50,545 nucleotides of DNA from a virus (taxonomy: Duplodnaviria; Heunggongvirae; Uroviricota; Caudoviricetes): IMG/VR virus record IMGVR_UViG_2617270947_000016; one strand, 5' to 3'. How positions within the stretch are numbered: position 1 is the first letter of the stretch; each line of letters opens with the position of its first letter. Below the pieces are notes generated by a model. It had not been told where the DNA came from, did not search any database, and saw only the letters and a program-made list of their open reading frames with translations. This document shows positions 30,976 to 50,545 of this stretch, one piece after another. A program made the translations under genes and the position numbers.

Positions 30976-31052
30976 TGGCGCGTTGTACTGGATTCGAACC
31001 AGTGACCGATTGCTTAGAAGGCAATTGCTCTGTCCGGCTGAGCTAACAACGC
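30976..31052 (-). tRNA. tRNA-Arg (anticodon UCU)
   Basis: 77 nt cloverleaf: acceptor GCGTTGT/ACAACGC, anticodon loop CTTCTAA, T-loop TTCGAAT, 3' CCA. Confidence 0.85.
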
Positions 31053-31065
31053 AGGGTACAGATAA

Positions 31066-31142
31066 TGGACCGCCATCGAGGACTCGAACCCCGCGCAACC
31101 AGCTTCGAAGGCTGGCGCTCTATCCTGATGAGCTAATGGCGG
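31066..31142 (-). tRNA. tRNA-Arg (anticodon UCG)
   Basis: 77 nt: acceptor CCGCCAT/ATGGCGG, anticodon stem CCAGC/GCTGG with loop CTTCGAA, T-loop TTCGAGT, 3' CCA. Confidence 0.75.
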
Positions 31143-31149
31143 TATGTGA

Positions 31150-31225
31150 TGGTGGCCCTTGCTGGATTTGAACCAGCGACCTGGCGATTATGAGTCGCTC
31201 GCTCTCACCACTGAGCTAAAGGGCC
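31150..31225 (-). tRNA. tRNA with CAU anticodon, ileX-like (tRNA-Ile2 / Met)
   Basis: 76 nt: GGCCCTTTAGCTCAGTGGT...CTCATAA...GGTTCAAATCC...CCA; resembles E. coli ileX. Confidence 0.8.
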
Positions 31226-34139: not shown

Positions 34140-34835
34140 TTAATTGACTTTTGCAATAACCCGCCGCGAAAAGGTCGCTTTTTGTTGCGATCTTGTTTTC
34201 ATGGTATAAATCAAAGATTCGTTGTCGAGGTTCTTAAAAATGTCGCACATATCACGCCAGTAGTGCGCATAATTGTGGCTCCAGTTGTCTGACTTAACTC
34301 CACACAGTCTGGCAAGTTCCTGTCGCTGGTAGACGTCACACCCAGTAATCCTCCCCCTGACATCCTGCGCCGCCAGCCAGATTAATTTCTTCAGACGCTC
34401 AAGCGTTTTCCCTGTAATTTTTCTGGTGCCAAAATGCACCTGAAACTTATCCCACGCCCATTTCGCAATGACCACCTGATAATCCCAACTCGGATTTTCA
34501 CTGTATACCCACAGTACCCACGCCTTCTGATGCTCTTCAAGAGACAGAACGGCGCGTCGCCATGATGATGTCGAAAACTCAACCGGACTGACTAGGGCAA
34601 TTGATGAACCTTTCGCCAGCGATTGCTTTCCCGGGATCGGTGGATTATCCAGCGTTACCATTTTTCCAGTGACCTTATCGCGGTACCGGATTTTTTTACG
34701 TCTGTAACGCCCTGTATCAAACATGGCATTCTCCTGCCAGGCTTCAAGCTGACCTTTTGTTGCCCCACTCAAATCGGCGGTGGCGATAATGAGTTGCTCA
34801 CGAACAAACTGTAAATACTGGTTATTCATGCGCAC
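34140..34835 (-). CDS. Putative late-gene antiterminator, Q-like (assignment by position)
   Basis: 231 aa ORF directly downstream of rusA and upstream of the late region, the Q position; no lambda Q similarity or zinc finger seen. Confidence 0.4.
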   Translation of the reverse strand: MRMNNQYLQFVREQLIIATADLSGATKGQLEAWQENAMFDTGRYRRKKIRYRDKVTGKMVTLDNPPIPGKQSLAKGSSIALVSPVEFSTSSWRRAVLSLEEHQKAWVLWVYSENPSWDYQVVIAKWAWDKFQVHFGTRKITGKTLERLKKLIWLAAQDVRGRITGCDVYQRQELARLCGVKSDNWSHNYAHYWRDMCDIFKNLDNESLIYTMKTRSQQKATFSRRVIAKVN

Positions 34836-35185
34836 TCCAGCTCTGTGATTTTTATCCCCAACCGACCACCAGGAACAGGCAGTCCGCGCACAATATTGAT
34901 TTCATCAAACTGCTCGTCGTCGATAAGCAACCCCGCATGTGTCAGTGCATCCAGTGGTGCTTTCAGAATATTGTCCAGGTCACGACGGCGCTTATCCGGT
35001 GGCTCTGCAATCACCTTTATCGCCAGCCTTCCGGACAGGCTTAATTTCAGCCGCTGCTGGCGAACAATAAGCGCCACTGCCCGGCGATAACGCTCCCCGG
35101 CTTTTGATACAAAATATGTGCTGCCACGGCGTCGCCAGTAAGTGTTCACCGTCGGCGGGTAAGGTAAAACCAAATCTATGAGCAT
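34826..35185 (-). CDS. rusA: Holliday junction resolvase RusA
   Basis: 119 aa; RRRDLDN...DALT..G...DD motif region matches RusA. Confidence 0.85.
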   Translation of the reverse strand: MLIDLVLPYPPTVNTYWRRRGSTYFVSKAGERYRRAVALIVRQQRLKLSLSGRLAIKVIAEPPDKRRRDLDNILKAPLDALTHAGLLIDDEQFDEINIVRGLPVPGGRLGIKITELECA

Positions 35186-35197
35186 CAGTCACCTCTT

Positions 35198-36217
35198 TTA
35201 CCCAAGCACGCCAGTTGCAAAGGCGTGATCAAGAAAACGAAAAATTAAATCAACCTGAGAACCATGCTTTTCTTCGAACGCCAGAGGATCCGCATGAAGC
35301 TCGTTGTGATGCTCCCGACACAGCGGTAGCGTGAAAATATCGTGAGATTTTGTCCCCATTCCGCCCTGACCATGACCAATCAGGTGATGGGGATCGTCGG
35401 CTGGCTTACCACAACATGCACACGGCTGCGTCTTAACCCAGCGCGTGTACTTTTCATTAACCCAGCGACGACGTTTTGGGCGTAACATAAAAGACTCCGG
35501 AGACTCCGGATCCACTTTCAGCGCCAGCACCTTTTTCGCCTTATCCTGGATGATGCTGGTGGCAGTAACCGAAGGCACAAGGTCACTTTCCCGGGTGACA
35601 GACGGCACAACAGGCTTCGGTAATCTCAGTGCCTTACGGGCTGCACTTTCCGGTAAGGCATCCGCCAGGTCATTACGAATCAGCCACCAGCACAGTTCCG
35701 GCATTGTCACAACGTGACTGTCATCAAAACCAAGATCACGGCGCACAACAGACAACACCCAGCGGGCACAGTTATCCGTTGCCATTGCTTCCAGCCGTTC
35801 CGTGAACTGGTCACGGAGAAGATTGTCACAGTGCCAGCACAGACGGATTGCGCCTGGCGCGTGCCGCATTGTGGTCATGTTCTCGCTGTGCCATCCGGAA
35901 TGAGGCCACTGACAGCCTTTTTCACGAAGTAACCAGCTCTCAAGGCATTCCACGCCACCAGCACGACGGATCACCGCCTCATGGCGGAACACGGCCCGAA
36001 CGGCAGGATCATCCGCCAGCGGTTGTGATGCTGCCGGAACGGCACCGCTGGCGAAAGATGAATAACGTTCCGGCTCAGGCTCCAGCAGGACACGCCCCTG
36101 CATAAACAGGGGCATCAGCTCTGAACCGGGCCTGAACAATACAATCCCCATACGCGGGGCAATTTCAGGGGTCAGCAGTGCTCTCACGGTCACCTCAGCA
36201 AACGATATTGAATGCAT
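35198..36217 (-). CDS. DUF968-like nin-region protein with C-terminal Cys/His (HNH-like) motif
   Basis: 339 aa; C-terminal CACCGKPADDPHHL...CREHHNELH. Confidence 0.55.
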   Translation of the reverse strand: MHSISFAEVTVRALLTPEIAPRMGIVLFRPGSELMPLFMQGRVLLEPEPERYSSFASGAVPAASQPLADDPAVRAVFRHEAVIRRAGGVECLESWLLREKGCQWPHSGWHSENMTTMRHAPGAIRLCWHCDNLLRDQFTERLEAMATDNCARWVLSVVRRDLGFDDSHVVTMPELCWWLIRNDLADALPESAARKALRLPKPVVPSVTRESDLVPSVTATSIIQDKAKKVLALKVDPESPESFMLRPKRRRWVNEKYTRWVKTQPCACCGKPADDPHHLIGHGQGGMGTKSHDIFTLPLCREHHNELHADPLAFEEKHGSQVDLIFRFLDHAFATGVLG

Positions 36218-40288: not shown

Positions 40289-40479
40289 GGACGCACCTCC
40301 GCCGTAGTTACGTATTTAACCGGGCTACCTTTCATTGAGATGGTTTCACACATCTCTGCCGCTTTCAGTTCCGCTGTTTTTCTGGATTTATAGCGACGGT
40401 GCCAGACAGATACATCCGTGCGAACTGATACATCGTTTCTGTATTCCGTAGTGGAGATGATGATTTCGTAACTAATCAT
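40285..40479 (-). CDS. Hypothetical protein
   Basis: 64 aa ORF, overlapping start/stop with neighbours. Confidence 0.35.
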   Translation of the reverse strand: MISYEIIISTTEYRNDVSVRTDVSVWHRRYKSRKTAELKAAEMCETISMKGSPVKYVTTAEVRP

Positions 40480-41339
40480 GGGCGAACCTCCTTGTCAGAA
40501 CCATTCAGCCTGGAATCAACAAGTGCAGCGCCAAAAACAGCATCACCAACACGGTCGTACAGTTTGCTAGCCAGCGGAGATTCAACGGCCTTAAGCATTG
40601 GATAAAGCTGGCTTGTCCAGATTTGATGGATTTCACGCAAATGCAGGTATACGCCTCTGGCGTTTCGTGCGACAGCTGACATATCAGACGCATCGGCACC
40701 TGATAAACTCTTCTCCATCAGGTTAAAGGCGTTGATGTATGCCTCTTTGAACCGGGCAGCACGTTTACCAGTGAAGCCCATGGCAAGAAACGCAAAACCG
40801 TCGCGGGTGATTTGGTAACAAGGGAGCTTGCGTGTACCACCGTTCGGTTGATTTACCGAAATCGATGTCTCCGCAAAATTGCGGGCACAAAACTCAGGGG
40901 AACAATCCAGAGTGCGGATCTTTTTCAGCACATCGTCATGACGCTTGGAGAAGAAGTTGGCAACAGCCAAAGAAGTGGTAACGGCCTGGCCGTTGTCAAT
41001 GGTGATTTCAGGTTGAGTGAGGGCTGGGATCGTAGCCATGATGGCAGCCTCCGTTGACAGTGAAAAACTTCCACCACCGGAAACGCCAATTTCACTGGTG
41101 GTGAACTGGACGGGGTTGGCGTAACCGGCGTCAACGGAGACCGGCGCACCTTTCGGTGCCCCCGCCCAGCCCACCATAATCTGGATGTGAGCAAATGCGG
41201 ACGATAAAAAAGACGCTGACGCGTCATACATCGCCGTTGACAATTTCAGGACGCCAATCCCGGCACCCGCTTTATAAGGTGCGGAGACAGTGTAACGTCC
41301 CGAAATTGCAGAATCAATATTTGGTCTTGAAATGATCAT
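40476..41339 (-). CDS. Protein with C-terminal Rha-family (phage regulatory protein) domain
   Basis: 287 aa; ...KRHDDVLKKIRTL...ITRDGFAFLAMGFTGKRAARFKEAYINAFNLME pattern. Confidence 0.55.
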   Translation of the reverse strand: MIISRPNIDSAISGRYTVSAPYKAGAGIGVLKLSTAMYDASASFLSSAFAHIQIMVGWAGAPKGAPVSVDAGYANPVQFTTSEIGVSGGGSFSLSTEAAIMATIPALTQPEITIDNGQAVTTSLAVANFFSKRHDDVLKKIRTLDCSPEFCARNFAETSISVNQPNGGTRKLPCYQITRDGFAFLAMGFTGKRAARFKEAYINAFNLMEKSLSGADASDMSAVARNARGVYLHLREIHQIWTSQLYPMLKAVESPLASKLYDRVGDAVFGAALVDSRLNGSDKEVRP

Positions 41340-41423
41340 ATAGCTGCTGATATCTTTAGAACTGTTCTTGGATGTTTCGGAGCCGTTTTATGCGAAACAG
41401 CTCCCCGTTATTGATGTTGAGTG

Positions 41424-41449
41424 AGCCGGGTTACTCCCGGCTTTTTTTC
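41424..41449 (+). terminator. Intrinsic terminator on plus strand inside the early-right operon (OOP-like antisense RNA terminator candidate)
   Basis: AGCCGGG-TTACT-CCCGGCT followed by TTTTTTT on plus strand. Confidence 0.45.
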
Positions 41450-42155
41450 ACCGCTGCCAACCAATAACCTGAAATAACCCCATTTTCGGGTGATACCAGC
41501 GAGTCCCTCGCGGTTCTGCTTCCTCCATAACCCGATAAAAAGCAGCCATAAACGGTTCCACAGCAACAATTGCGCGACGTGACAACAATCCGTCCGGCGT
41601 CATGAACTCATGGGTGTCTGTAGGAATCTGATAGGCGTTCACCAGATTGCGGCATTTATCATCTGACAAACCGGTTTTTGCTTTCAGTTGGCGATATCCG
41701 GCATAGCCCTCACGAATAGTGCCCTTTTTAATTTGCTCGACTGTTTCAGCAACGTGGCTGACTTTTTCTTCCACCTGAGTGATCCGTTTCTGCTGACGAA
41801 CTGCTTCAAGAGCCATCGCGGCAACCATTTCGATTTCGCTCATTGGCTTACGGATCTGTTCTTCCAGTTCGCGCCAGCGATCTACCAGGCGAGCAGTGAA
41901 TTCAGGACAGAGCTGTGCGACGACAATGATGCTGTCGCGCTTACCTTGTTCTCCTTCAAACAGGTAATGCTCATATTGAACTTTAAAACCTAAGTTATTG
42001 ATTCTTTCGGAAACCTCAATTTGAGGAGACCGGACAACGCCACCTTTGGCTAATGTTTCAATAGTGCGTTTCACATTGTCATGACGTTTACCCACCAGCT
42101 CTGCGATCTCAACGCTGGTCATGGATGCTTTGCCGTTAAAAATTGCGGTGTTCAT
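41448..42155 (-). CDS. Rha-family phage regulatory protein
   Basis: 235 aa; MTSVEIAELVGKRHDNVKRTIETL N-terminal motif. Confidence 0.65.
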   Translation of the reverse strand: MNTAIFNGKASMTSVEIAELVGKRHDNVKRTIETLAKGGVVRSPQIEVSERINNLGFKVQYEHYLFEGEQGKRDSIIVVAQLCPEFTARLVDRWRELEEQIRKPMSEIEMVAAMALEAVRQQKRITQVEEKVSHVAETVEQIKKGTIREGYAGYRQLKAKTGLSDDKCRNLVNAYQIPTDTHEFMTPDGLLSRRAIVAVEPFMAAFYRVMEEAEPRGTRWYHPKMGLFQVIGWQR

Positions 42156-42379
42156 TGTTGGTCTCCTGTGGGCTTGTCATCTTCTGTATTCGCTAGACTT
42201 GGGTGTGTATATGGAATGCTCGGATCCAGATGACAAAGAATGGCAACATCCTCCGGAACACCTCGCGTTTTCCACTTTCCAACACCTTGACTGCCACGAG
42301 GCCTTCCTTTCTTTGGGAACCTGCGACCAATAGCGGCATTGGTTTTAAATTGAATTTTTAATATTTCATAAAGGGTCAT
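42152..42379 (-). CDS. Hypothetical basic protein in Cro position
   Basis: 75 aa ORF divergent from cI; weak RBS; Lys/Arg/Pro-rich. Confidence 0.3.
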   Translation of the reverse strand: MTLYEILKIQFKTNAAIGRRFPKKGRPRGSQGVGKWKTRGVPEDVAILCHLDPSIPYTHPSLANTEDDKPTGDQQ

Positions 42380-42490
42380 TCTTTAGTCTCACACCAGATA
42401 CTTTGTTATCCAACGATGTTAACCACGGGAATCCAAAGTATCAAGAAATTCTGTTACTTTAGTATCAACAGCCATGAGAGGAGAAGAAAA
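42380..42490. promoter_or_regulatory. Right operator/promoter region with GTATCA/TGATAC dyad motifs
   Basis: GATACT at 42397, AGTATC at 42437 and 42461, AAAGTA/TACTTT inverted repeat; between divergent cI and early-right genes. Confidence 0.45.
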
Positions 42491-43147
42491 ATGAAGTCTT
42501 TAGGTGAACGTCTCATCAACGCACGGCAAAAAGCTGGGTTAACACAAGATGCGTTGGCTAAAAAAGCTGGGATCACCAGAGTTGCAATCAGTAAAGCCGA
42601 GCAAGGCCTTACAAAAAGTTTCAACGGTGACACCCTTTTTAAAGTTGCAGCTGCACTGCGGTGTTCACCGCAGTGGCTTCAGAACGGAGATGAAAAAGAT
42701 AAGCATTGGGAAAATAATGTTAAGAGCTGCCCACAGAGAGACACAGCACACTCTTACCCTGTAATTAACTGGGTTCAGGCAGGATTATTCGCAACTTCTG
42801 GTGATGACTACAACATGTATGATCAGGATAATTGGAGGCATTCTGTAAAATACGCTGGTGAGAGGGGGTTCTGGCTGGAAGTGCACGGAGACTCAATGAC
42901 TTCGCCCGTAGGAATAACATTTCCTGAAGGAATGTCGATCCTTGTCAACCCAGATAAAGAAGTTTTTTCAGGGTGTTACGTCATCGCCAGAAAAAAATCC
43001 ACCAATGAAGCAACATTCAAAAAATATATTTCTGACATGGGAAAGGCGTTTCTAAAGCCCCTTAATCCACAATATCCAATCATAGAAATGGACAATGATT
43101 GCGAAATAGTAGGTGTTGTGGTTGATGCCAGGTGGGATATTTTCTGA
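42491..43147 (+). CDS. cI: CI-type repressor (HTH_XRE plus LexA-like S24 peptidase domain)
   Basis: Start at MKSLGERLINARQKAGLTQ with RBS GAGAGGAG; C-terminal WLEVHGDSM...FKK...LKPLNPQYP closely resembles lambda CI. Confidence 0.88.
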   Translation: MKSLGERLINARQKAGLTQDALAKKAGITRVAISKAEQGLTKSFNGDTLFKVAAALRCSPQWLQNGDEKDKHWENNVKSCPQRDTAHSYPVINWVQAGLFATSGDDYNMYDQDNWRHSVKYAGERGFWLEVHGDSMTSPVGITFPEGMSILVNPDKEVFSGCYVIARKKSTNEATFKKYISDMGKAFLKPLNPQYPIIEMDNDCEIVGVVVDARWDIF

Positions 43148-43149
43148 CC

Positions 43150-43250
43150 AGACACAAAACACAAAAAGAAACCAAAGTATCAAAAATCACTTGCCACACC
43201 TTGATACCTTAGTTACCATAAAACAAAGTTCGTAACTGAGGTATCATCTC
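43150..43250. promoter_or_regulatory. Left operator/promoter region sharing GTATCAA/TTGATAC dyads
   Basis: AAAGTATCAA at 43174 and inverted TTGATACCTT at 43201; AGGTATCAT at 43239. Confidence 0.4.
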
Positions 43251-43754
43251 ATGATCAATAAAGCTACAACTCTTGACTGTCTCGAAGAACTGAAAAACCT
43301 CGGCAGCCTCATTACACTAATAGCAAAAGCAACACCTGATGCTACGCTCTCTAGCGATATAGAGTCATGCGCAGGACTGGCATGGGATATGACAAATAGC
43401 ATATCCAGAAAGCTATCGTCAGCAATGCTTTTACAGAACAAAAATTCTGCAATCAACAACCGTCTTCGCACCCAACGCGAAGCCTGCGGCTTAACAACCG
43501 CCGAACTCGCCAGGCTGCTCGATCTCGATGAAGAAATTATCATCCAGTGGGAGAGCGGAGAGTATGAACCAACTATCAGTATGCTTATCCCACTGGCAAA
43601 TATTCTTGGCTGCGATCCGATGTGCCTGTTAACTGGTGAGGTTACTCCTCCGGAGCAACCAAAAAGTGAGGAGCAGCAACACCATGACGCATCTCAACAA
43701 GTTTGCCCCTTATCTCGCGAAGCTCTTCTGCGGAAGAACCAATACCAATGGTGA
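43251..43754 (+). CDS. Hypothetical protein with C-terminal HTH_XRE domain, first gene of early-left operon
   Basis: 167 aa; C-terminal LTTAELARLLDLDEEIIIQWESGEYEPTISMLIPLANILG is an XRE-type HTH. Confidence 0.5.
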   Translation: MINKATTLDCLEELKNLGSLITLIAKATPDATLSSDIESCAGLAWDMTNSISRKLSSAMLLQNKNSAINNRLRTQREACGLTTAELARLLDLDEEIIIQWESGEYEPTISMLIPLANILGCDPMCLLTGEVTPPEQPKSEEQQHHDASQQVCPLSREALLRKNQYQW

Positions 43755-43902
43755 CATAATCGCCGCTTCGCCCTTCAAGGTACATGCGAACATTTTTATC
43801 AATCATTGCGGAAACAGTCTCAATATGAAAACACTTCTGAGACTCACTATATAGCAGAACATATAAGTCAGCTGAGGAAGCCATGAAAAAGTTCGAAAAC
43901 AT
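43642..43902 (-). CDS. Possible antisense-encoded protein
   Basis: 86 aa ORF with GGAGA RBS; overlaps 3' end of the 167 aa gene. Confidence 0.2.
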   Translation of the reverse strand: MFSNFFMASSADLYVLLYSESQKCFHIETVSAMIDKNVRMYLEGRSGDYVTIGIGSSAEELREIRGKLVEMRHGVAAPHFLVAPEE

Positions 43903-44248
43903 AACTGTTCTCCATGTTGATGACTTTGATTATACAAACCCGGAACTTCTCCCGGAGGTTGTAAAGGCAATAGATGTTGCCGATATAGTGATTAGAGAAA
44001 AGAGAATTGTCAAAAACAGGCTCGCATGCACTTCAGGAGCAATGACAGAAACAACCTCACAGCAAGATAATTACGAAGGCATTTGTCTGGAGCCTGATTC
44101 ATTTGCGGTAAATGTTTATCATTTATTGCATGCAACACAGGTATTACATATGTCCAGTAATCACGAAACGAAAACACTCGGCAGCGAAATTCTGAGTTTT
44201 GCATGTGAGTATACAAAAGCTGCTGCCGAAAAAGAATTAGCGCAATAA
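43883..44248 (+). CDS. Hypothetical protein
   Basis: 121 aa; strong RBS GAGGAAG. Confidence 0.5.
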   Translation: MKKFENITVLHVDDFDYTNPELLPEVVKAIDVADIVIREKRIVKNRLACTSGAMTETTSQQDNYEGICLEPDSFAVNVYHLLHATQVLHMSSNHETKTLGSEILSFACEYTKAAAEKELAQ

Positions 44249-44326
44249 CAACAAATATGCCCTGAACGTTTATTGCGGTTTTATCGCCGGGGATTGTTAC
44301 AACCTTAATCCACAGGAGGCTTTATT

Positions 44327-44440
44327 GTGACTTTTATAAAGAATATGGCATCACACAAGACCGCCTGCCTTATTGCACAATACGGTGAAAATTACATGCA
44401 TATTGCCTGCTTATTTCTGCGTAAAGCATACGGGAGATAA
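44327..44440 (+). CDS. Possible small protein (37 aa, GTG start)
   Basis: AGGAGG 7 nt upstream of GTG; stop 2 nt before next ATG. Confidence 0.25.
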   Translation: MTFIKNMASHKTACLIAQYGENYMHIACLFLRKAYGR

Positions 44441-44442
44441 TA

Positions 44443-44637
44443 ATGCATCAGAAAACAGCAGAACACGAACAAACCAGAATATTGCTGACCATCAAAAACG
44501 GGAAAGTAATATTCATTCGCCATGTTCATGACGATGAACTTGTAGGAACTCTTTCAACATTCCTGTTTATTGCAGAAAAGGCAGGATATGACGTTATTGC
44601 ACCAGCAGATGAAGATGAAGATGAAGATGAGGAATAA
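44443..44637 (+). CDS. Hypothetical small acidic protein with C-terminal Asp/Glu tail
   Basis: 64 aa; ends ...APADEDEDEDEE. Confidence 0.45.
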   Translation: MHQKTAEHEQTRILLTIKNGKVIFIRHVHDDELVGTLSTFLFIAEKAGYDVIAPADEDEDEDEE

Positions 44638-44642
44638 ATATC

Positions 44643-45224
44643 ATGCAATACGATGAATTCCAGGCTGAAGCAACAGCCAATGGTATACGAACTGGCAGTA
44701 TGACGATTGATTATCACGACGCCATACGTCGTCTGGATGCCGGAGAATTCGATACTCCTAATGTGCGAGGTTTACGTATCCTTCAGTGTCTGGCGCAAGC
44801 CGACGAAGCAGGATTACTGGGTAAACTTCCGGTTGAGATGAAGGTTGCTCAGTGGCGATGGTTGTATGTGACGACATTCATCAACGAAGAAGAAGACAAG
44901 AACGGCACAATTGATATCCTGAATGAACACGGAACAACTGAACACGCCGTGGTATATAACGGGATGTATGGGTTTATGACGATATATCCCGGCCCCATTC
45001 GATTTGCCTTACAACAGTATATTGAATGGAATTTAATTCAAAAATACGGCGAAGCTGAAGGAATGGGAAGAGCGCTGTTTCTTTATCAGAAAATGCTCAC
45101 TACTTCCCCTGATAAAGGTTTCATTCTTTCAGATATGGGTCGAGAAGGGCTTGAAATCCTTCTGAATGAAATTATTAACGAAATGAATGCTCATGGCATG
45201 CAATCCGAAACAGATATTAAGTAA
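44643..45224 (+). CDS. Hypothetical protein
   Basis: 193 aa ORF beginning 5 nt after preceding stop. Confidence 0.5.
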   Translation: MQYDEFQAEATANGIRTGSMTIDYHDAIRRLDAGEFDTPNVRGLRILQCLAQADEAGLLGKLPVEMKVAQWRWLYVTTFINEEEDKNGTIDILNEHGTTEHAVVYNGMYGFMTIYPGPIRFALQQYIEWNLIQKYGEAEGMGRALFLYQKMLTTSPDKGFILSDMGREGLEILLNEIINEMNAHGMQSETDIK

Positions 45225-45234
45225 AAGGGACCAC

Positions 45235-45483
45235 ATGACCGTTATCGAGTATATCCAGGAAAATCCAGATTGCAGTAGAGAAGATATATCCCTCGCACTT
45301 GGAAGAAGCGCAACTTCTATCAGTAATGAATTATCACGGTTATTGTGGAATGGGTTAATAGTACGAACTGGAGAAAAAAACAAAATGATTCTGTACTGCG
45401 TAAACAATCTGCCGTTTGGATACAGCAATCCCCTAAGTGTTATGTTCAACCAGTTACTTAAACAGGTAAGAAATGGCAACTGA
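45235..45483 (+). CDS. Small winged-helix DNA-binding protein (putative)
   Basis: Start MTVIEYIQENPDCSREDISLALGRSATSISNELSRLLWNGLIVR. Confidence 0.4.
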   Translation: MTVIEYIQENPDCSREDISLALGRSATSISNELSRLLWNGLIVRTGEKNKMILYCVNNLPFGYSNPLSVMFNQLLKQVRNGN

Positions 45484-45790
45484 CTCACAACTAACCATAG
45501 AAACGGCCCTGAATGTCGGCCTGGCGCTCCTTGGTTATTTTTACATCGTGTTCTGCAGCGGACGGTGGCTGTCGCTGTTGTTCCTGAAAAAATGGAATAA
45601 ACGCCGTAAGCAGGATGAACGCCAGAAGGCAATGAATGCGTTTTCCGAAGCCTTCGGAATTGACGGCATGGAACCAGGGGATCCAGCTCGCGCAATCAGC
45701 AGAGGGGGTGTAGTAATCCTTGTATATCGGAGTGAAGAGAAAAATGACGATCACAAAACAACGAGTAGAAAAAATCATATATCGCCATGA
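45473..45790 (+). CDS. Hypothetical membrane protein
   Basis: 105 aa; one N-terminal TM segment then basic region. Confidence 0.4.
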   Translation: MATDSQLTIETALNVGLALLGYFYIVFCSGRWLSLLFLKKWNKRRKQDERQKAMNAFSEAFGIDGMEPGDPARAISRGGVVILVYRSEEKNDDHKTTSRKNHISP

Positions 45791-46058
45791 AATGGGACTG
45801 AACAGCGATGTCACTGCCGAAGAGGTTTATGACCTGGCTGTACTGGCGCTGAATTTATCAAATATCGCAAACCTGAAGCGATACGAGCTTGATATGGATG
45901 GTTGCGACTCGTGCGGTCAGGATTGTGGCGCAGATATGACTGAAAATCCTGATGGTGATTATGTCCTGTTTGATGACGTGGTTAAGTTGTTTGAATTTGA
46001 TACAACCACTCAAAAGTTAGAAATCCCGGCAAAGGAGGCTGCCAGTGAGCAAGATTGA
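45744..46058 (+). CDS. Hypothetical protein with Cys-rich acidic motif
   Basis: Start MTITKQ with RBS GGAGTGAAGAG; DMDGCDSCGQDCGADM. Confidence 0.4.
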   Translation: MTITKQRVEKIIYRHEMGLNSDVTAEEVYDLAVLALNLSNIANLKRYELDMDGCDSCGQDCGADMTENPDGDYVLFDDVVKLFEFDTTTQKLEIPAKEAASEQD

Positions 46059-46230
46059 CTATCAGGCACTGCGCGAGGCGGCGGAACAGGCAACGCAAGA
46101 TGAATGGGTAGCATATATTTTGCCGGGTCATAACGGCATTTATCCTGCGCGCACGTCTGAGGGTAGGCATTGTGCGGATACTTTATTGACTGGCCTGGCG
46201 TCTGTCAGGGGCGGGAGAGCATCAACATGA
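46045..46230 (+). CDS. Ea22-like N-terminal fragment (GTG start)
   Basis: 61 aa; MSKIDYQALREAAEQAT shares N-terminus and 5' DNA with gene at 46730. Confidence 0.4.
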   Translation: MSKIDYQALREAAEQATQDEWVAYILPGHNGIYPARTSEGRHCADTLLTGLASVRGGRAST

Positions 46231-46733
46231 GCATCAGAACCTACGCAGTGAATTGCAATGACGCATGGCTAAACACCGAAGGTGATGACATCTCCGGCTC
46301 ATACGTTAAGTACAAAGACCATCAGGAAGTGGTTGCCGCTCTTGAGGCCAAGTGCGCGGCGCTGGCAGCGGAGAATGCGGGAATAAAGTCTGCAATTCCA
46401 GAATCACGGGATATTGAAGATGACAATGACAATATGGATGACGTATCTCTCGCGGAAGACTTCGGGTTCAATCATGCAATAGAACGGATGAGGAGACAGA
46501 TACCTGAAACGCCAACCACTGATGCTTTCCTGGCTGAAGTCCGGGCGCAGGGGGTGGATGCTGCTATAGAAGCTGCAAAAAATCTGGTGGCCCAAGAATA
46601 TGAGTATAAGGATTTCAAAGCGGCGCAGAGTGATTGCTGTATGTACCCTGGTTCAGACCTGGTAGGGAAGGTTGAAATGACTGAGTGGTTAGTTGACTTT
46701 GCTGCCCAGCTTCGCAAAGGAGGCAACCAGTGA
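46227..46733 (+). CDS. Hypothetical protein
   Basis: Start MSIRTYAVNC with RBS GGGAGAG. Confidence 0.45.
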   Translation: MSIRTYAVNCNDAWLNTEGDDISGSYVKYKDHQEVVAALEAKCAALAAENAGIKSAIPESRDIEDDNDNMDDVSLAEDFGFNHAIERMRRQIPETPTTDAFLAEVRAQGVDAAIEAAKNLVAQEYEYKDFKAAQSDCCMYPGSDLVGKVEMTEWLVDFAAQLRKGGNQ

Positions 46734-47215
46734 GCGAAATTAATTACCAGGCACTGCGTGAGGTGGCGGAACGTGCAATTCCAGCAATGGAACGCCTGTT
46801 AATGTTGCCAGCTGATGATGACTTGTTAAGTGAACAGGAACTTAAAGATTACGGTGTGGATATTGATGCGCTCAACGCCTTCAAATTTCTGACCGGACCA
46901 GAAACCGTGCTGGCACTGCTGGATGAACGGGAAAGAAACCTGCAATACATCAAAAGCCGCGATCAGGAGAACGAGGATATTGCGCTAACGGTAGGGAAGC
47001 TGCGCGTTGAGCTTGAAGCAGAAAAACAGCGGGCAAAAGTTCTATTTATGGAAAATGCTCGGCTTAAGTCAGGCATAGCCGGTCTGATACACCTCGGTAT
47101 TCGATATGCAGATGTTGAGGTCATGAAAATTGCTGGAGATGCCCAGCTTTCTACCCCATGCACTGACAGCATCATAAACAGCATTGCAACAGGCATTCGC
47201 ATCAAAGGAGAGTGA
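46730..47215 (+). CDS. Ead/Ea22-like family protein
   Basis: 161 aa; N-terminus MSEINYQALREVAERA; coiled-coil. Confidence 0.5.
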   Translation: MSEINYQALREVAERAIPAMERLLMLPADDDLLSEQELKDYGVDIDALNAFKFLTGPETVLALLDERERNLQYIKSRDQENEDIALTVGKLRVELEAEKQRAKVLFMENARLKSGIAGLIHLGIRYADVEVMKIAGDAQLSTPCTDSIINSIATGIRIKGE

Positions 47216-47216
47216 T

Positions 47217-47732
47217 ATGGCGTTAACACACCACGAACTCTGTCAGATTGCGTACAAGTTCCTTAAGCGCAACGGGTTCAAGGTTTGCTTTCATGACCGC
47301 TTTGTTGCTGTAACCAGTACCGGAGAACAGCCAGATGCTATGGGATTCAGAAATTCAGCATCATGCCTGATAGAGGCGAAGTGTTCTCGTGCTGACTTGT
47401 TGGCAGATAGAAAAAAGCGTTTCCGTAAAAATCCCTCACTTGGCATGGGCGACTGGCGATTCTTTATTAGTGAGCCGGAAATTATTTCAGTTGAGGATTT
47501 ACCTCCCGGCTGGGGATTACTTCACGTTGTTAACGGAAGAGTACGGAAAGTACATGGATGGCCCAGGGGTAATTGCTGTTGGGGTAATCCTGACGATAAG
47601 CCATTTACTGGGAATAAGCAGGTTGAATGCGATTACATGTTATCTGCATTAAGGCGCATGGAGTTGAGAGGGCACCTTAATGAAATATATGACGGTGTGA
47701 TTGTTAATAAGAAAGAAGGAAACGCGGCATGA
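47217..47732 (+). CDS. Putative PD-(D/E)xK-fold nuclease-like protein
   Basis: Start MALTHHEL with RBS AAAGGAGAG; motif PDAMGF...CLIEAKCS. Confidence 0.35.
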   Translation: MALTHHELCQIAYKFLKRNGFKVCFHDRFVAVTSTGEQPDAMGFRNSASCLIEAKCSRADLLADRKKRFRKNPSLGMGDWRFFISEPEIISVEDLPPGWGLLHVVNGRVRKVHGWPRGNCCWGNPDDKPFTGNKQVECDYMLSALRRMELRGHLNEIYDGVIVNKKEGNAA

Positions 47733-48487
47733 TCACTATTACCAAAGGGCGACTGCTGACAATCAAGCAGTGGCGCGAAACATACGGACCGGGTAGCAAC
47801 GTTGTACTGCCAGCAGAAGAAGCGGAAGAACTGGCACGAATTGCACTGGTATCGCTGGAAGCAGAGCCAGTGGCAAAGATTATAGCTCATTACCCATTAG
47901 GAGTTGACGTAGGCAAACAAAAGTTCGTACAGGCCATTGGAGAGCTTCCTGACTTTGGCGGATATCTATTTGCCGCCCCGCCAGCGCCGGTAGTGCCGGA
48001 AGAAGCAACTCCGGAAAACGTAGAAATGCTCTCTGGCTATGTTTCCACGTACAAATTAACCGATAGCGAGCGCGATATTGCTGCCGAAATATGGAACGCC
48101 TGCCGCACCGCCATGCTTCAGTCCGGAAACTTTCGGGAAAGCAAGAATTCGTCAACCAATAATTTTCGGGAAATCCCGGAAGCGTCAACCAGCTCTCCGG
48201 TAACTCCGGCTCTTCTGCCAGGTGGTTTCACCATTGAGGAGGCGAAGGAATTACATGAAGACCTGGTACGCAGCCACATAAGCAAGGCCTTAAGTGGCGA
48301 AAAGATGAAAAAGAAAGATCGCGATGCTGATTTGCGCTGGATTCATGGCGTTATAGTTCAGGCAGCGTGGCTTGTAAAAGCATCACTGGAGCAGAATGCA
48401 CTATCGGGCAACTCTCCGGTAACTCCGGATGGTTGGATAAGCTGTAGTGAGCGAATGCCGGACGACAGGCAGGAGGTGAATCAATGA
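47729..48487 (+). CDS. Hypothetical protein, possibly DUF551-type C-terminus
   Basis: 252 aa; C-terminal ...DGWISCSERMPDD. Confidence 0.4.
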   Translation: MITITKGRLLTIKQWRETYGPGSNVVLPAEEAEELARIALVSLEAEPVAKIIAHYPLGVDVGKQKFVQAIGELPDFGGYLFAAPPAPVVPEEATPENVEMLSGYVSTYKLTDSERDIAAEIWNACRTAMLQSGNFRESKNSSTNNFREIPEASTSSPVTPALLPGGFTIEEAKELHEDLVRSHISKALSGEKMKKKDRDADLRWIHGVIVQAAWLVKASLEQNALSGNSPVTPDGWISCSERMPDDRQEVNQ

Positions 48488-48571
48488 GCTGGCCTGATGC
48501 AATCGTAACTCTGGGGGTGGTATTCGCAGCAGCGTTTGTTGTGTTCTCGATTTGTCGATGGGGATAACCAC

Positions 48572-48814
48572 ATGTTCGCTTTGATTCAACGCGGTCAGAT
48601 ATACACGGACAGAGCTGGATACCCCGTGGTGATTACTCGCATCACTGAGCACTCAGTGTTCTTTCGACGGATGGACGGACGATCCGGGCGGGTACGCATT
48701 GGTGAGTTAAACTGCCTGTTCGAACATATTGACCACCAGGAGTACCGCAAAATTCTCGCGGACACTGAGCAGGAAAAGCACCTGAAAAAATTACGAGCCA
48801 TAAAAAGGAAGTAA
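48572..48814 (+). CDS. Hypothetical protein
   Basis: 80 aa from internal start MFALIQRGQIY. Confidence 0.4.
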   Translation: MFALIQRGQIYTDRAGYPVVITRITEHSVFFRRMDGRSGRVRIGELNCLFEHIDHQEYRKILADTEQEKHLKKLRAIKRK

Positions 48815-48970
48815 AGAATGAATAAAGCATTTGAACGATGGGTCCACCAGCGTTACGGCAATCGCTATGACCTGACGCGAGATGTTGACGGCTTCTACTG
48901 TCGTGAAGTTGTGAAGCGAATGTTTGAAGTGTGGTGCCACTGCCGTGGATGAAAATTTTATGAGGTTGGC

Positions 48971-49225
48971 ATGCAGACAATCATCTATCAGATAACCCCC
49001 AGCAAATGGTGTACGGAGAGAGTCCTCATTGCATCAACAGGGCTAAAGCCTGGCACCATTGAGCGGGCAAGAAGAAAGTCATGGATGCAGGGAAAAGAAT
49101 ACCGCCATTACGCTGTAGAAGGTGATCCGGGGCACTACAGTGAATGCCTGTACAACATCGAAGAAATTATGCGATGGATCGAAAACCAGAAACAACCAGG
49201 TGCCAAAAATGCAAGTTCCGGTTAA
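48971..49225 (+). CDS. xis: Putative excisionase / small DNA-binding protein
   Basis: 84 aa basic protein immediately upstream of integrase; RBS GAGGTTGG. Confidence 0.5.
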   Translation: MQTIIYQITPSKWCTERVLIASTGLKPGTIERARRKSWMQGKEYRHYAVEGDPGHYSECLYNIEEIMRWIENQKQPGAKNASSG

Positions 49226-49258
49226 CCTGTTAATGCTCCTGGACGTCTGGGAGGTTTA

Positions 49259-50545
49259 ATGAGTAACGCATCATACCCGACAGGCGTTGAAAACCATGGA
49301 GGATCACTCCGTATATGGTTTCACTATAATGGCAAACGTGTCAGAGAAAACCTCGGTGTTCCTGACACAGCCAAAAACCGGAAGATCGCTGGTGAACTTC
49401 GCACTTCCGTTTGTTTTGCAATCAGAATGGGGAGTTTCGACTACGCCGCGCAGTTCCCTAATTCCCCTAACCTGAAACACTTTGGTCTGGGAAAAAGAGA
49501 GATAACCGTTAAGGCACTTTCGGAAAAATGGTTGGACCTTAAGAAAATTGAGATTTGTGCGAATGCACTTAATCGTTACCAGTCAGTAATTAAAAACATG
49601 TTGCCTATGTTGGGTGAGAAAAAACTGGTTTCATCCATAACAAAAGAGGATTTACTTTTCGCAAGGAGAGATTTGTTGACCGGTTACCAAAAGCTTTCTA
49701 ATGGAAAGATTTCTTCCATAAAAGGGCGCTCAGTGGTCACAGTAAACTACTATATGACAACCATAGCTGGAATGTTTCAATTTGCAACAGATAATGGTTA
49801 TACCTCAGGAAACCCATTTAACGGTCTGGCACCCTTAAAAAAGTCCAAGGTAAAACCAGATCCTCTCACCCGTGACGAATTTATTCGTTTTATTGAAGCT
49901 TGCCGTCATCAACAAACAAAAAACCTGTGGATTCTCGCTGTATACACGGGTATTCGTCACGGGGAGCTGGTATCGCTGGCATGGGAAGATATAGATCTTA
50001 AAGCAAGGACTATAACCATCCGTAGGAATTATACAAAACTTGGCGAATTCACTCCACCAAAAACCGATGCTGGCACCGGAAGGACAATTCATCTGGTTCA
50101 ACCAGCTATTGATGCTCTTAAAAGTCAGGCGGAAATGACCATGCTTGGAAAGCAACATTCTGTAGAGGTAAAGCAGAGGGAATATGGGAGAAGTACTGTG
50201 CATAAATGCACTTTTGTTTTTAGTCCTCAGGTAATAAAACAGCGGCAGTTTTCCGGACCGCACTATAAGGTTGACTCCATCAGGGAGTCATGGACAAGTA
50301 TCTTAAAACGCGCAGGTCTGAGACACAGAAAATCGTACCAATCCAGGCATACTTATGCATGCTGGTCACTTGCCGCTGGAGCTAATCCTAGTTTTATCGC
50401 AAGCCAGATGGGCCACACAAACGCACAAATGGTATTCAATGTTTACGGAGCATGGATGAAAGACAACAATCACGAACAGATAGAACTCCTTAACAAAAGA
50501 CTATCTGAAAGTGTCCCATGTATGCCCCATAAGAAAGCTGGGTAA
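49259..50545 (+). CDS. int: Tyrosine-type site-specific integrase
   Basis: 428 aa; catalytic-region residues (R in GIRHGEL, H-x-x-R in SRHTYACW, terminal Y in VYGAW); RBS GGGAGG; stop at window end. Confidence 0.9.
   Translation: MSNASYPTGVENHGGSLRIWFHYNGKRVRENLGVPDTAKNRKIAGELRTSVCFAIRMGSFDYAAQFPNSPNLKHFGLGKREITVKALSEKWLDLKKIEICANALNRYQSVIKNMLPMLGEKKLVSSITKEDLLFARRDLLTGYQKLSNGKISSIKGRSVVTVNYYMTTIAGMFQFATDNGYTSGNPFNGLAPLKKSKVKPDPLTRDEFIRFIEACRHQQTKNLWILAVYTGIRHGELVSLAWEDIDLKARTITIRRNYTKLGEFTPPKTDAGTGRTIHLVQPAIDALKSQAEMTMLGKQHSVEVKQREYGRSTVHKCTFVFSPQVIKQRQFSGPHYKVDSIRESWTSILKRAGLRHRKSYQSRHTYACWSLAAGANPSFIASQMGHTNAQMVFNVYGAWMKDNNHEQIELLNKRLSESVPCMPHKKAG

Follow-up and report, generated by a model that had tools for sequence, protein, structure and literature searches.

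The stretch at positions 43,251 to 48,814 of IMG/VR virus record IMGVR_UViG_2617270947_000016, a Caudoviricetes sequence of 50,545 nucleotides (nt) that is referred to below, at its full length, as the window, is probably the repressor-controlled leftward early operon of an Escherichia coli lambda-like prophage of the type represented by phiP27 and the Shiga toxin 1a (Stx1a) phages. Its cargo is likewise probably a set of dispensable accessory genes that recombination has shuffled into a patchwork, repressed by CI and carried by a prophage with phiP27-type immunity and with genes arranged as in O157 Stx1a phages. Over its full length, the stretch is 99.7% identical to an annotated prophage in E. 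coli O111:H2 strain 12A, in which the gene string closes with xisR and a tyrosine integrase gene, followed by the host gene mlrA. In a relative, CP026723, the same prophage carries DnaB- and DnaC-type replication genes, DUF968, a Q antiterminator, a DNA methylase, three tRNAs and lysis genes, and IstB/DnaC-like, DnaB, DUF968, RusA, Q and methylase domains were verified in the window itself. The window was also identified as IMG/VR contig IMGVR_UViG_2619619132_000015. This gene content, together with xis and int adjoining mlrA, indicates a lambdoid prophage residing at the mlrA (yehV) site.

Judged by sequence, the operon as a whole is already known, with its gene string present in RefSeq E. 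coli genomes, in phiP27 and in the Stx1a phages of O157. An earlier note on this DNA had called its open reading frames (ORFs) mostly unrecognised, which overstates the case given the 99.7% match to RefSeq prophages, the maps of phiP27 (L01-L11) and of the Stx1a phages, and the existing PHROG families; most of the products do lack a known function. Every plus-strand ORF except one of 37 codons could be assigned to an existing PHROG family, and formal Pfam matches were obtained for seven ORFs, comprising HTH_3, DUF4752, Ead_Ea22 (three ORFs), DUF551 (a 16-residue fragment) and DUF4222. NCBIfam yielded generic helix-turn-helix (HTH) and winged-HTH matches only, querying the PDB with the sequences of the 182-, 193-, 64- and 80-amino-acid (aa) proteins returned nothing informative, and a full-text literature search for the accessions under which RefSeq lists six ORFs retrieved no paper.

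The patchwork nature of the cargo is evident from its distribution. Of 5426 complete E. coli genomes, 3265 match some part of the stretch, but only 22 contain at least 80% of it. Among 79 IMG/VR loci picked by the presence of the 193-aa gene described below, moreover, presence differs gene by gene. This combination of patchy genome coverage and gene-by-gene variation argues for a mosaic of mobile accessory modules, and modules of a comparable kind are known from the exo-xis region of lambda and from Ea22 (PMC10834534).

Putative operators and promoter, and predicted transcription

The cI gene (42491-43147, + strand) encodes a LexA-like protein composed of an HTH domain and an S24 peptidase, and is flanked by two segments of approximately 75 bp that together hold six copies of a 14-mer resembling GATAC-N4-GTATC. 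Three of these lie between cI and the divergent cro-like gene (42397-42410, 42429-42442 and 42453-42466), and three are located just downstream of cI (43168-43181, 43203-43216 and 43232-43245). A scan permitting up to 2 mismatches returned 21 matches in the 50.5-kb window, versus 13.4 expected by chance, with six falling within approximately 150 bp. The downstream set, which we regard as the left operator and PL-like promoter (43168..43245, +), combines its three 14-bp sites with promoter-like hexamers: a sigma-70-like site, TTGCCA-17-TACCAT, spans 43191-43219 on the plus strand (-35 hexamer TTGCCA, 43191-43196; -10 hexamer TACCAT, 43214-43219), overlaps the operator set and points away from cI. 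At the level of motifs, the features of a lambdoid PL/OL region are therefore present, namely repeated operators shared between both sides of the repressor gene, an overlapping outward promoter, and xis and int at the distal end. By analogy, the arrangement would correspond to a classic OL/PL at which the repressor binds and leftward transcription begins, in agreement with the earlier proposal of an early-left PL operon downstream of a left operator.

Approximately 15 plus-strand ORFs extend from 43251 to 48952, followed by xis and int. Seven ORF junctions overlap, by 4-47 nt, others are separated by gaps of 1-5 nt, and most ORFs are preceded by a Shine-Dalgarno sequence, so that the tight string of plus-strand ORFs described previously is indeed found. 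Plus-strand terminator-like hairpins from PL to int are all weak and all reside within ORFs. An Rfam scan of 41000-50545 revealed no antitermination RNA of the nut- or put-like kind, although no dedicated search for boxA/boxB motifs was included. As there is no convincing intrinsic terminator along this path, an N-type antiterminator would not be needed, and leftward transcription is predicted from the sequence to reach xis and int without an N-type system. We envisage that inactivation of the LexA-like S24 repressor would permit RNA polymerase to initiate at the PL-like promoter (43191-43219) and to read through approximately 6 kb into xis and int, and that overlapping stop and start codons would couple the translation of adjacent ORFs. 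This transcription pattern, the translational coupling and all biological roles considered below are inferred.

Cargo genes of recognizable families

The winged-HTH protein pointed out in the earlier note is the 98-aa product of 45187..45483 (+), which matches phrog_1687 ('MarR family') at 1.3e-24 and is annotated as MarR family in Stx1a phages, but which scores 22.9 bits against MarR_2, below the 27-bit Pfam cut-off for membership. MarR-like winged helix is therefore the most fitting description of it. The adjoining 105-aa DUF4752 protein (45473..45790, +; Pfam 7.2e-37) carries one N-terminal hydrophobic segment (Kyte-Doolittle 19-residue maximum of 1.67, residues 12-30), in keeping with its earlier description as a small membrane protein. 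The next product, of 104 aa (45744..46058, +; phrog_3126 at 2.5e-63), had been described as Cys-rich and acidic; it is acidic (isoelectric point, pI, of 4.2), but contains only three Cys residues, all in the sequence CDSCGQDC. Its N-terminal segment is common to the 252-aa protein encoded downstream, and its N-terminus also matches phrog_3323.

Ea22-like proteins had likewise been listed, and three ORFs belong to Ead/Ea22 (PF13935), scoring 54.0, 46.6 and 108.8 bits against a 27-bit cut-off. Two of these, however, prove to be the halves of a single frameshifted gene (46045..46733, +). The 61-aa ORF (46045-46230) covers positions 1-45 of the Ead_Ea22 profile and the 168-aa ORF (46227-46733) covers positions 38-138, and the split is caused by a 2-bp TG insertion near 46171-46172 that is missing from the intact 228-aa gene of CP026723, to which the split gene is 99.1% identical. 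The third ORF encodes an intact 161-aa Ead/Ea22 protein (46730..47215, +) that matches all of the profile (1-139 of 139 positions, 4.2e-31).

Beyond a predicted nuclease gene (see below), a 252-aa mosaic 'EaA-like' protein (47729..48487, +) matches phrog_60 at 3.2e-42 and several other PHROGs partially. Its C-terminal end corresponds to positions 1-16 of the 68-position DUF551 profile, and its relatives are annotated as EaA or DUF551. An 80-aa DUF4222 protein of the RgdR family (48572..48814, +; Pfam 1.1e-13, 50.9 bits) reads RGQ at the position of the RGD tripeptide that, together with DUF4222, characterizes RgdR-type proteins. Just upstream of xis, a 44-aa ORF (48818..48952, +; phrog_3871 at 1.9e-32) is 93% identical in phiP27 and 82% identical in Stx1a phages. 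The excisionase gene (48971-49225, +; Pfam DUF1233 at 2e-29) is termed xisR in relatives, and a tyrosine integrase gene (49259-50545, +) is identified by the RefSeq annotation of relatives, in which the next gene is mlrA.

There are only two cargo families for which experimental data exist, Ea22 and DUF4222/RgdR. Ea22 favours lysogeny (PMC7093339; PMC10834534), and the DUF4222 protein RgdR activates expression of the locus of enterocyte effacement (LEE) and its type III secretion system (T3SS), for which its RGD motif is needed (PMC10877973). By analogy with these proteins, the most likely role of the cargo is to adjust host physiology and the choice between lysis and lysogeny, rather than to supply Red-type recombination. 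Several observations weigh against our overall interpretation. The promoter, the operators and the read-through are assignments from motifs only; the DUF4222 copy in the window lacks the RGD motif that RgdR activity requires; and one of the Ea22 genes is frameshifted. In addition, the HTH protein, the three-gene block, the L08 equivalent, the 104-aa protein and the antisense gene are without a functional relative, and the tuning of lysogeny and host is thus extrapolated from two families.

A co-inherited three-gene block

Three consecutive plus-strand ORFs between the phiP27 L08 equivalent and the MarR-like gene behave as a unit. The first, a 37-codon ORF (44327..44440, +) that the earlier note did not name, begins with GTG and has AGGAGG 7 nt upstream. 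It has no PHROG match, is annotated in PhiR49_2 and in Stx1a phages, and is found in 78 of the 79 loci at 68-100% aa identity, with its length maintained in the divergent allele. Some members of its sequence cluster are 119 aa long and were considered as a longer form of the gene, but these are unrelated sequences. The second ORF (44443..44637, +; phrog_340 at 1.4e-22) encodes a 64-aa protein with a poly-Asp/Glu tail that resembles phiP27 L07. It matches the C-terminal parts of two 'anti-repressor' PHROGs weakly, and its family is a narrow one of Escherichia (26 hits, mostly E. coli). The third (44643..45224, +; phrog_1515) encodes a 193-aa acidic protein resembling phiP27 L06, which adopts a confident predicted fold for which no structural neighbour was found. 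An exhaustive profile search of this last family retrieved 93 cluster representatives, with nearly all of the full-length ones being approximately 190-220 aa. Most family members end in G-[LMI]-P-x-x-P-[VT]-x-H, an ending that is lost in the window allele and its closest relatives.

The three genes occur together in 78 of the 79 loci and diverge jointly, to 68%, 48% and 66% identity, respectively. Of the 5426 complete E. coli genomes, 249 (approximately 5%) carry the block. When genome contigs were searched with the 193-aa family alignment no relative was detected, whereas a single distant member used as query led to three loci. Homologues with 36-40% identity occur in P4-like elements of Symbiopectobacterium and Pantoea (Pantoea septica). 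In the P4-like loci (L087 4001-4612 and L089 4001-4612), the 193-aa homologue is preceded by an Ash-family ORF and by several small, paralogous acidic ORFs, and is followed by a 118-aa ORF and a primase-helicase of approximately 920 aa with Zn-ribbon, Toprim and DUF927 regions.

These features lend some weight to a different explanation, namely that the region is an anti-defence or host-takeover island, one or more ORFs of which would inhibit a host defence system, with the 37-codon, 64-aa and 193-aa genes as the foremost candidates and the tail of the 64-aa protein perhaps mimicking DNA or the tail of single-stranded DNA-binding protein (SSB). The ORFs are early, driven by the putative PL, small and acidic (pI 4.2-5.0 for the 64-, 193-, 104-, 121- and 252-aa products), and the co-inheritance and joint divergence of the block point in the same direction, as does the confidently predicted fold of the 193-aa protein, a fold with no known relative. 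The occurrence of the 193-aa family in the early operon of P4-like elements also fits a function that is independent of lambdoid biology. The 64-aa protein does end in an Asp/Glu tail (DEDEDEDEE), as the earlier note observed, but its suggestion of a DNA mimic fares poorly. The terminal Asp/Glu run varies from 5 to 11 residues, with close alleles reading DEDEE versus DEDEDEDEE, and the 49%-identical phiP27-type allele ends in PPAKEQTL with no acidic run. The core is also approximately neutral, as counting from the sequence gives 7 acidic and 6 basic residues at positions 1-54. Judged by sequence, the protein thus does not appear to offer the folded surface with a dense and conserved acidic cover that a mimic acting in the mode of Ocr or ArdA would need, although it might inhibit in a different way. 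A tail that is variable, and missing from the divergent allele, is better explained as a lineage-specific low-complexity extension than as the functional element of a mimic. Furthermore, sequence searches revealed no resemblance to a solved structure, whether of a mimic or of another protein, and PADLOC yields generic HTH or winged-HTH matches only among the operon ORFs.

Anti-defence roles for early-left genes in general are plausible, but for this region we judge an island of that kind to be unlikely. More tentative still is the proposal that the block constitutes an early functional module with a new fold, shared by lambdoid prophages and P4-like satellites, that serves in host takeover, anti-defence or helper-satellite interactions. 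The preferred reading therefore continues to be that of a patchwork of accessory genes under CI control, in which the three-gene block, with its orphan fold and its occurrence in some 5% of complete E. coli genomes, represents a testable unknown.

The first PL gene, the L08 equivalent and an antisense gene

The first gene after PL encodes a 167-aa XRE-type HTH protein (43251..43754, +), in accordance with the HTH protein noted previously (Pfam HTH_3 at 2.5e-10). It matches phrog_4739 over its full length and is the equivalent of phiP27 L10, to which it is 95.5% identical over residues 1-132. The gene occupies the position at which lambda has N, although the N-terminus of its product is not arginine-rich as would be expected of an N protein. 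It also matches phrog_4836, labelled 'CII-like regulator', at 3e-39. This label traces to one PHROG name and one phage annotation; Pfam and NCBIfam place the protein in generic HTH families only, rather than with lambda CII, and its nearest solved relative is the HTH domain of the P22 C2 repressor (1e-5). We observed at least four length forms of the first PL gene (138, 167, about 216 and 237-244 aa), the longest with a second HTH domain, and the 138-aa form occurs on a larger number of contigs than that of 167 aa.

Over its final 113 nt, the 167-aa ORF overlaps a gene on the opposite strand (43642..43902, -) that encodes 86 aa, or 80 aa from the ATG at 43884, and that was absent from the plus-strand list of the earlier note. 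This antisense gene takes up the apparent gap of 128 nt that separates the HTH gene from the L08 equivalent, opposite the presumed PL transcript. It matches phrog_6104 over 80 of 80 positions (1.4e-49), appears among the gene calls of hundreds of contigs as a hypothetical protein of 86 aa, and has no informative match in Pfam, PADLOC or the PDB. Its homologue in phage ASU11 has the same length, is 76-77% identical and lies almost wholly in intergenic sequence. Between the window and ASU11, 45 codons differ, 24 synonymously and 21 non-synonymously, and the nucleotide differences are distributed over the codon positions of the minus frame as 16/12/35. Such a third-position bias is the pattern expected from purifying selection on the minus frame. 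The other nine minus-strand ORFs of at least 83 aa in the region include seven with no PHROG match and two with short, weak matches of approximately 20 residues. Inspection of the sequence reveals a TATAAT hexamer at 43934-43929 and GGAG 7 nt ahead of the ATG at 43902, suggesting that the antisense gene is expressed independently. Thus, it probably has its own promoter, and it may be expressed in the lysogen in the manner of a moron. A gene that appears to be under selection, and that is unannotated by RefSeq in the relatives examined, is a second unknown worth pursuing.

Next on the plus strand comes the 121-aa acidic equivalent of phiP27 L08 (43883..44248, +), which is 95.9% identical to its phiP27 counterpart, matches phrog_5451 over 121 of 121 positions (1.7e-83) and has no match in Pfam, NCBIfam or PADLOC. 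In RefSeq relatives the annotated form has 68 aa and begins at 44042, and the window and ASU11 copies are too similar to distinguish the 121-aa from the 68-aa start.

A predicted PD-(D/E)xK nuclease

Between the intact Ea22 gene and the EaA-like gene resides an intact ORF for a 171-aa protein (47217..47732, +; phrog_9263 and phrog_631), for which the earlier note recorded a PD-x13-EAK motif. The motif is present and invariant in the family, but its spacing is D-x12-ExK rather than x13. Family members of approximately 171 aa occur across the Enterobacterales (308 hits), with D27, E37, D40, E53 and K55 invariant. The AlphaFold2 model of the protein (mean predicted local distance difference test score of 86) displays the core alpha-beta fold that, along with a conserved D...(D/E)-x-K motif, defines the PD-(D/E)xK superfamily. 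The model thus suggests a nuclease, the catalytic activity of which is predicted only.

A D...E-x-K-x-S-R-x-D motif region is shared by the window protein, DUF1052/SPO1766 (PDB 3dnx) and the archaeal Hjc-type nucleases, and DUF1052, with structure 3dnx, is listed in the PD-(D/E)xK superfamily (PMC3424549). DUF1052 proteins are mostly alphaproteobacterial and chromosomal, whereas the nuclease family represented in the window belongs to enterobacterial prophages. None of 30 nuclease-family members matches PF06319 (DUF1052, now named MmcB-like in Pfam), even at an E-value of 10, and the nuclease profile reaches an E-value of 0.47 with the 3dnx sequence. As far as can be judged from the model, the relation to DUF1052 is structural only. 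Hjc is weakly touched by 13 of the 30 members, far below the cut-off.

The RefSeq annotation (PGAP) labels this gene 'frameshifted', with only 179 nt annotated, in two near-identical relatives (L001 7961-8476; L003 22756-23271). A pseudogene was considered and rejected, as the 171-codon ORF is unbroken and identical in the relatives bearing this label, which from the sequence looks like an annotation artefact. A widespread nuclease of enterobacterial prophages that PGAP labels 'frameshifted' in both relatives inspected is another testable unknown.

Decay and recombination as alternative explanations

Could the region instead be a decaying remnant, the non-functional cargo of a cryptic prophage that is gathering pseudogenes? 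The 2-bp frameshift in one ea22 gene, the 252-aa ORF that ends in a DUF551 fragment of merely 16 residues, and the loss of the RGD motif from the DUF4222 copy would all be in keeping with this explanation. The remaining ORFs, however, are intact and have Shine-Dalgarno sequences, and the same genes are carried by isolated or inducible phages, including PhiR49_2, ASU11 (induced with mitomycin C), phiP27 and the Stx1a phages. The third-position substitution bias of the antisense gene and the maintenance of invariant catalytic residues across genera in the nuclease family likewise run counter to decay. The rest of the window has complete DnaB-like, DnaC-like and Q domains, and lysis genes are annotated in relatives. 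With ORFs that are intact but for one frameshift, conserved, and shared with isolated and induced phages, decay does not explain the region, and we consider it improbable.

The absence of the lambda Red genes raises a last alternative. None of the plus-strand ORFs within 43251-48952 matches Exo (YqaJ-type), Bet/RecT-type or Gam families, and none matches the N, Kil or CIII families, in Pfam, PHROGs or NCBIfam; the annotations of near-identical relatives list no Red gene either. The failure of the earlier note to recognise Red, N, kil or cIII homologues is therefore upheld. That note had named assignment of the ORFs to known recombination or regulatory families as grounds for rejecting its reading. 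Homology searches made such assignments in part, placing ORFs among the XRE-type HTH proteins, the MarR-like winged helices, the RgdR family and the PD-(D/E)xK fold, but not in any Red-type recombination family. In the rightward operon RusA, DUF968 and Q were found, and no further recombination family. By sequence, no recombination gene other than RusA was recognised in the early regions of the phage. We note that the RusA Holliday-junction resolvase and the DUF968/HNH-like protein are encoded in a nin-like region (34826-35185 and 35198-36217, respectively, - strand).

A non-orthologous recombination module could in principle replace Red, pairing the 171-aa nuclease with an annealing protein that has escaped recognition, such as the 193-aa protein. 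The nuclease fold and its invariant catalytic motif, the weak matches of 13 of 30 family members to the Hjc resolvase family, and the position of a Morganella prophage homologue in a nin region, flanked by the recombination accessory genes NinB (Orf) and NinF/NinG (Rap), are compatible with such a module. Yet the two genes are 2 kb apart, the nuclease is found in only 19 of the 79 loci picked by the 193-aa gene, and Stx1a phages have the three-gene block without it; no Erf, RecT, Redbeta, Sak or Sak4 match was obtained in PHROGs or Pfam; a hit to Sak scored by Z is indistinguishable from many helix-only hits of equal Z; and, in contrast to lambda Exo, the nuclease is small and has a single domain. 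Since the nuclease and 193-aa genes are not co-inherited, a hidden recombination module is very improbable. Another contig has its nuclease homologue within a run of unknown small ORFs, and neighbourhoods as varied as this and the Morganella nin region indicate a floating accessory nuclease rather than one part of a fixed two-gene recombinase.

Other features of the window

Outside the leftward operon, Rfam matches to C4 antisense RNA (81 bits) and isrK (62 bits), along with a weak c4-a1b1 target element, occur at 41094-41295 (-), within an ORF at 40476-41339. Their sequences point to a P1/P7-type antirepressor module, controlled by antisense RNA, in the rightward operon. Pfam reads this ORF as Ash plus Rha, and all three matches fall in the N-terminal 'Ash' part, so that one may ask if the supposed Ash protein domain is in fact RNA-coding there. 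Three tRNA genes are present at 30976-31225 (-), with Arg-TCT, Arg-TCG and CAT anticodons, the last assigned to Met by ARAGORN and to Ile in a relative. This cluster lies between the DNA methylase gene and a 617-aa ORF, where Stx phages carry stx, but the approximately 490 nt from the tRNAs to the next ORF leave no room for stxAB.

The value of the stretch consists in its list of specific, testable unknowns on clinically relevant prophages. In addition to those described above, these include the HTH regulator at the lambda N position, which is found in phages with Shiga toxin genes. If any of the listed unknowns controls induction or counters host defences, it would have a bearing on the biology of Stx phages.

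Comparison with known phages

The regulator RgdR (ECs1581) of LEE and T3SS in enterohaemorrhagic E. coli is, like the 80-aa protein of the window, a small prophage-encoded DUF4222 protein. RgdR has RGD where the window copy has RGQ, and loss of RGD abolishes activity in an orthologue (PMC10877973).

In its general organization, the region resembles the exo-xis segment of lambda and the ea genes of P22, which also comprise early, PL-driven, small non-essential genes located ahead of xis and beyond the recombination region. The resemblance extends to the Ead/Ea22 coiled-coil proteins, which have variable C-terminal domains and undergo mosaic domain swapping, although the Ea22 C-terminal domains of the window are unlike those of lambda. 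In contrast with lambda, the promoter side lacks an exo gene, and no homologue of orf60a, orf61, orf63, orf73 or ea8.5 was detected in the window.

A closer match is provided by phiP27 (NC_003356; ORFs L01-L11), an Stx2e phage that was sequenced with these ORFs marked 'unknown'. Its repressor L11 is 97.7% identical to that of the window, L10 is 95.5% identical and L08 is 95.9% identical, and the cro-like gene of the window occupies the L12 position. L07, L06, L03, the 44-aa ORF, xis and int come next, ordered as in the window and with identities of 49-93%, and phiP27 likewise has no annotated Red genes. The two differ in that phiP27 has L05 (a lipoprotein), L04 and L09 where the window has the MarR, DUF4752, Ea22, nuclease and EaA block, and in that only the first 36 residues of the antisense gene are represented in phiP27.

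The Stx1a phages of E. coli O157:H7 (for example, LC567819) have a longer HTH regulator (216 aa), are without the PD-(D/E)xK nuclease and the 104-aa acidic protein, and carry stx, for which the window has no room beside its tRNA cluster. They nevertheless share its gene order of cI, HTH gene, small ORFs, 60-aa and 193-aa genes and MarR gene, continuing with DUF4752, ea-type genes, DUF4222, the 44-aa ORF, xis and intR. Like the window they have no Red genes, and their products are 80-100% identical to those encoded in the window, with xis at 100%.

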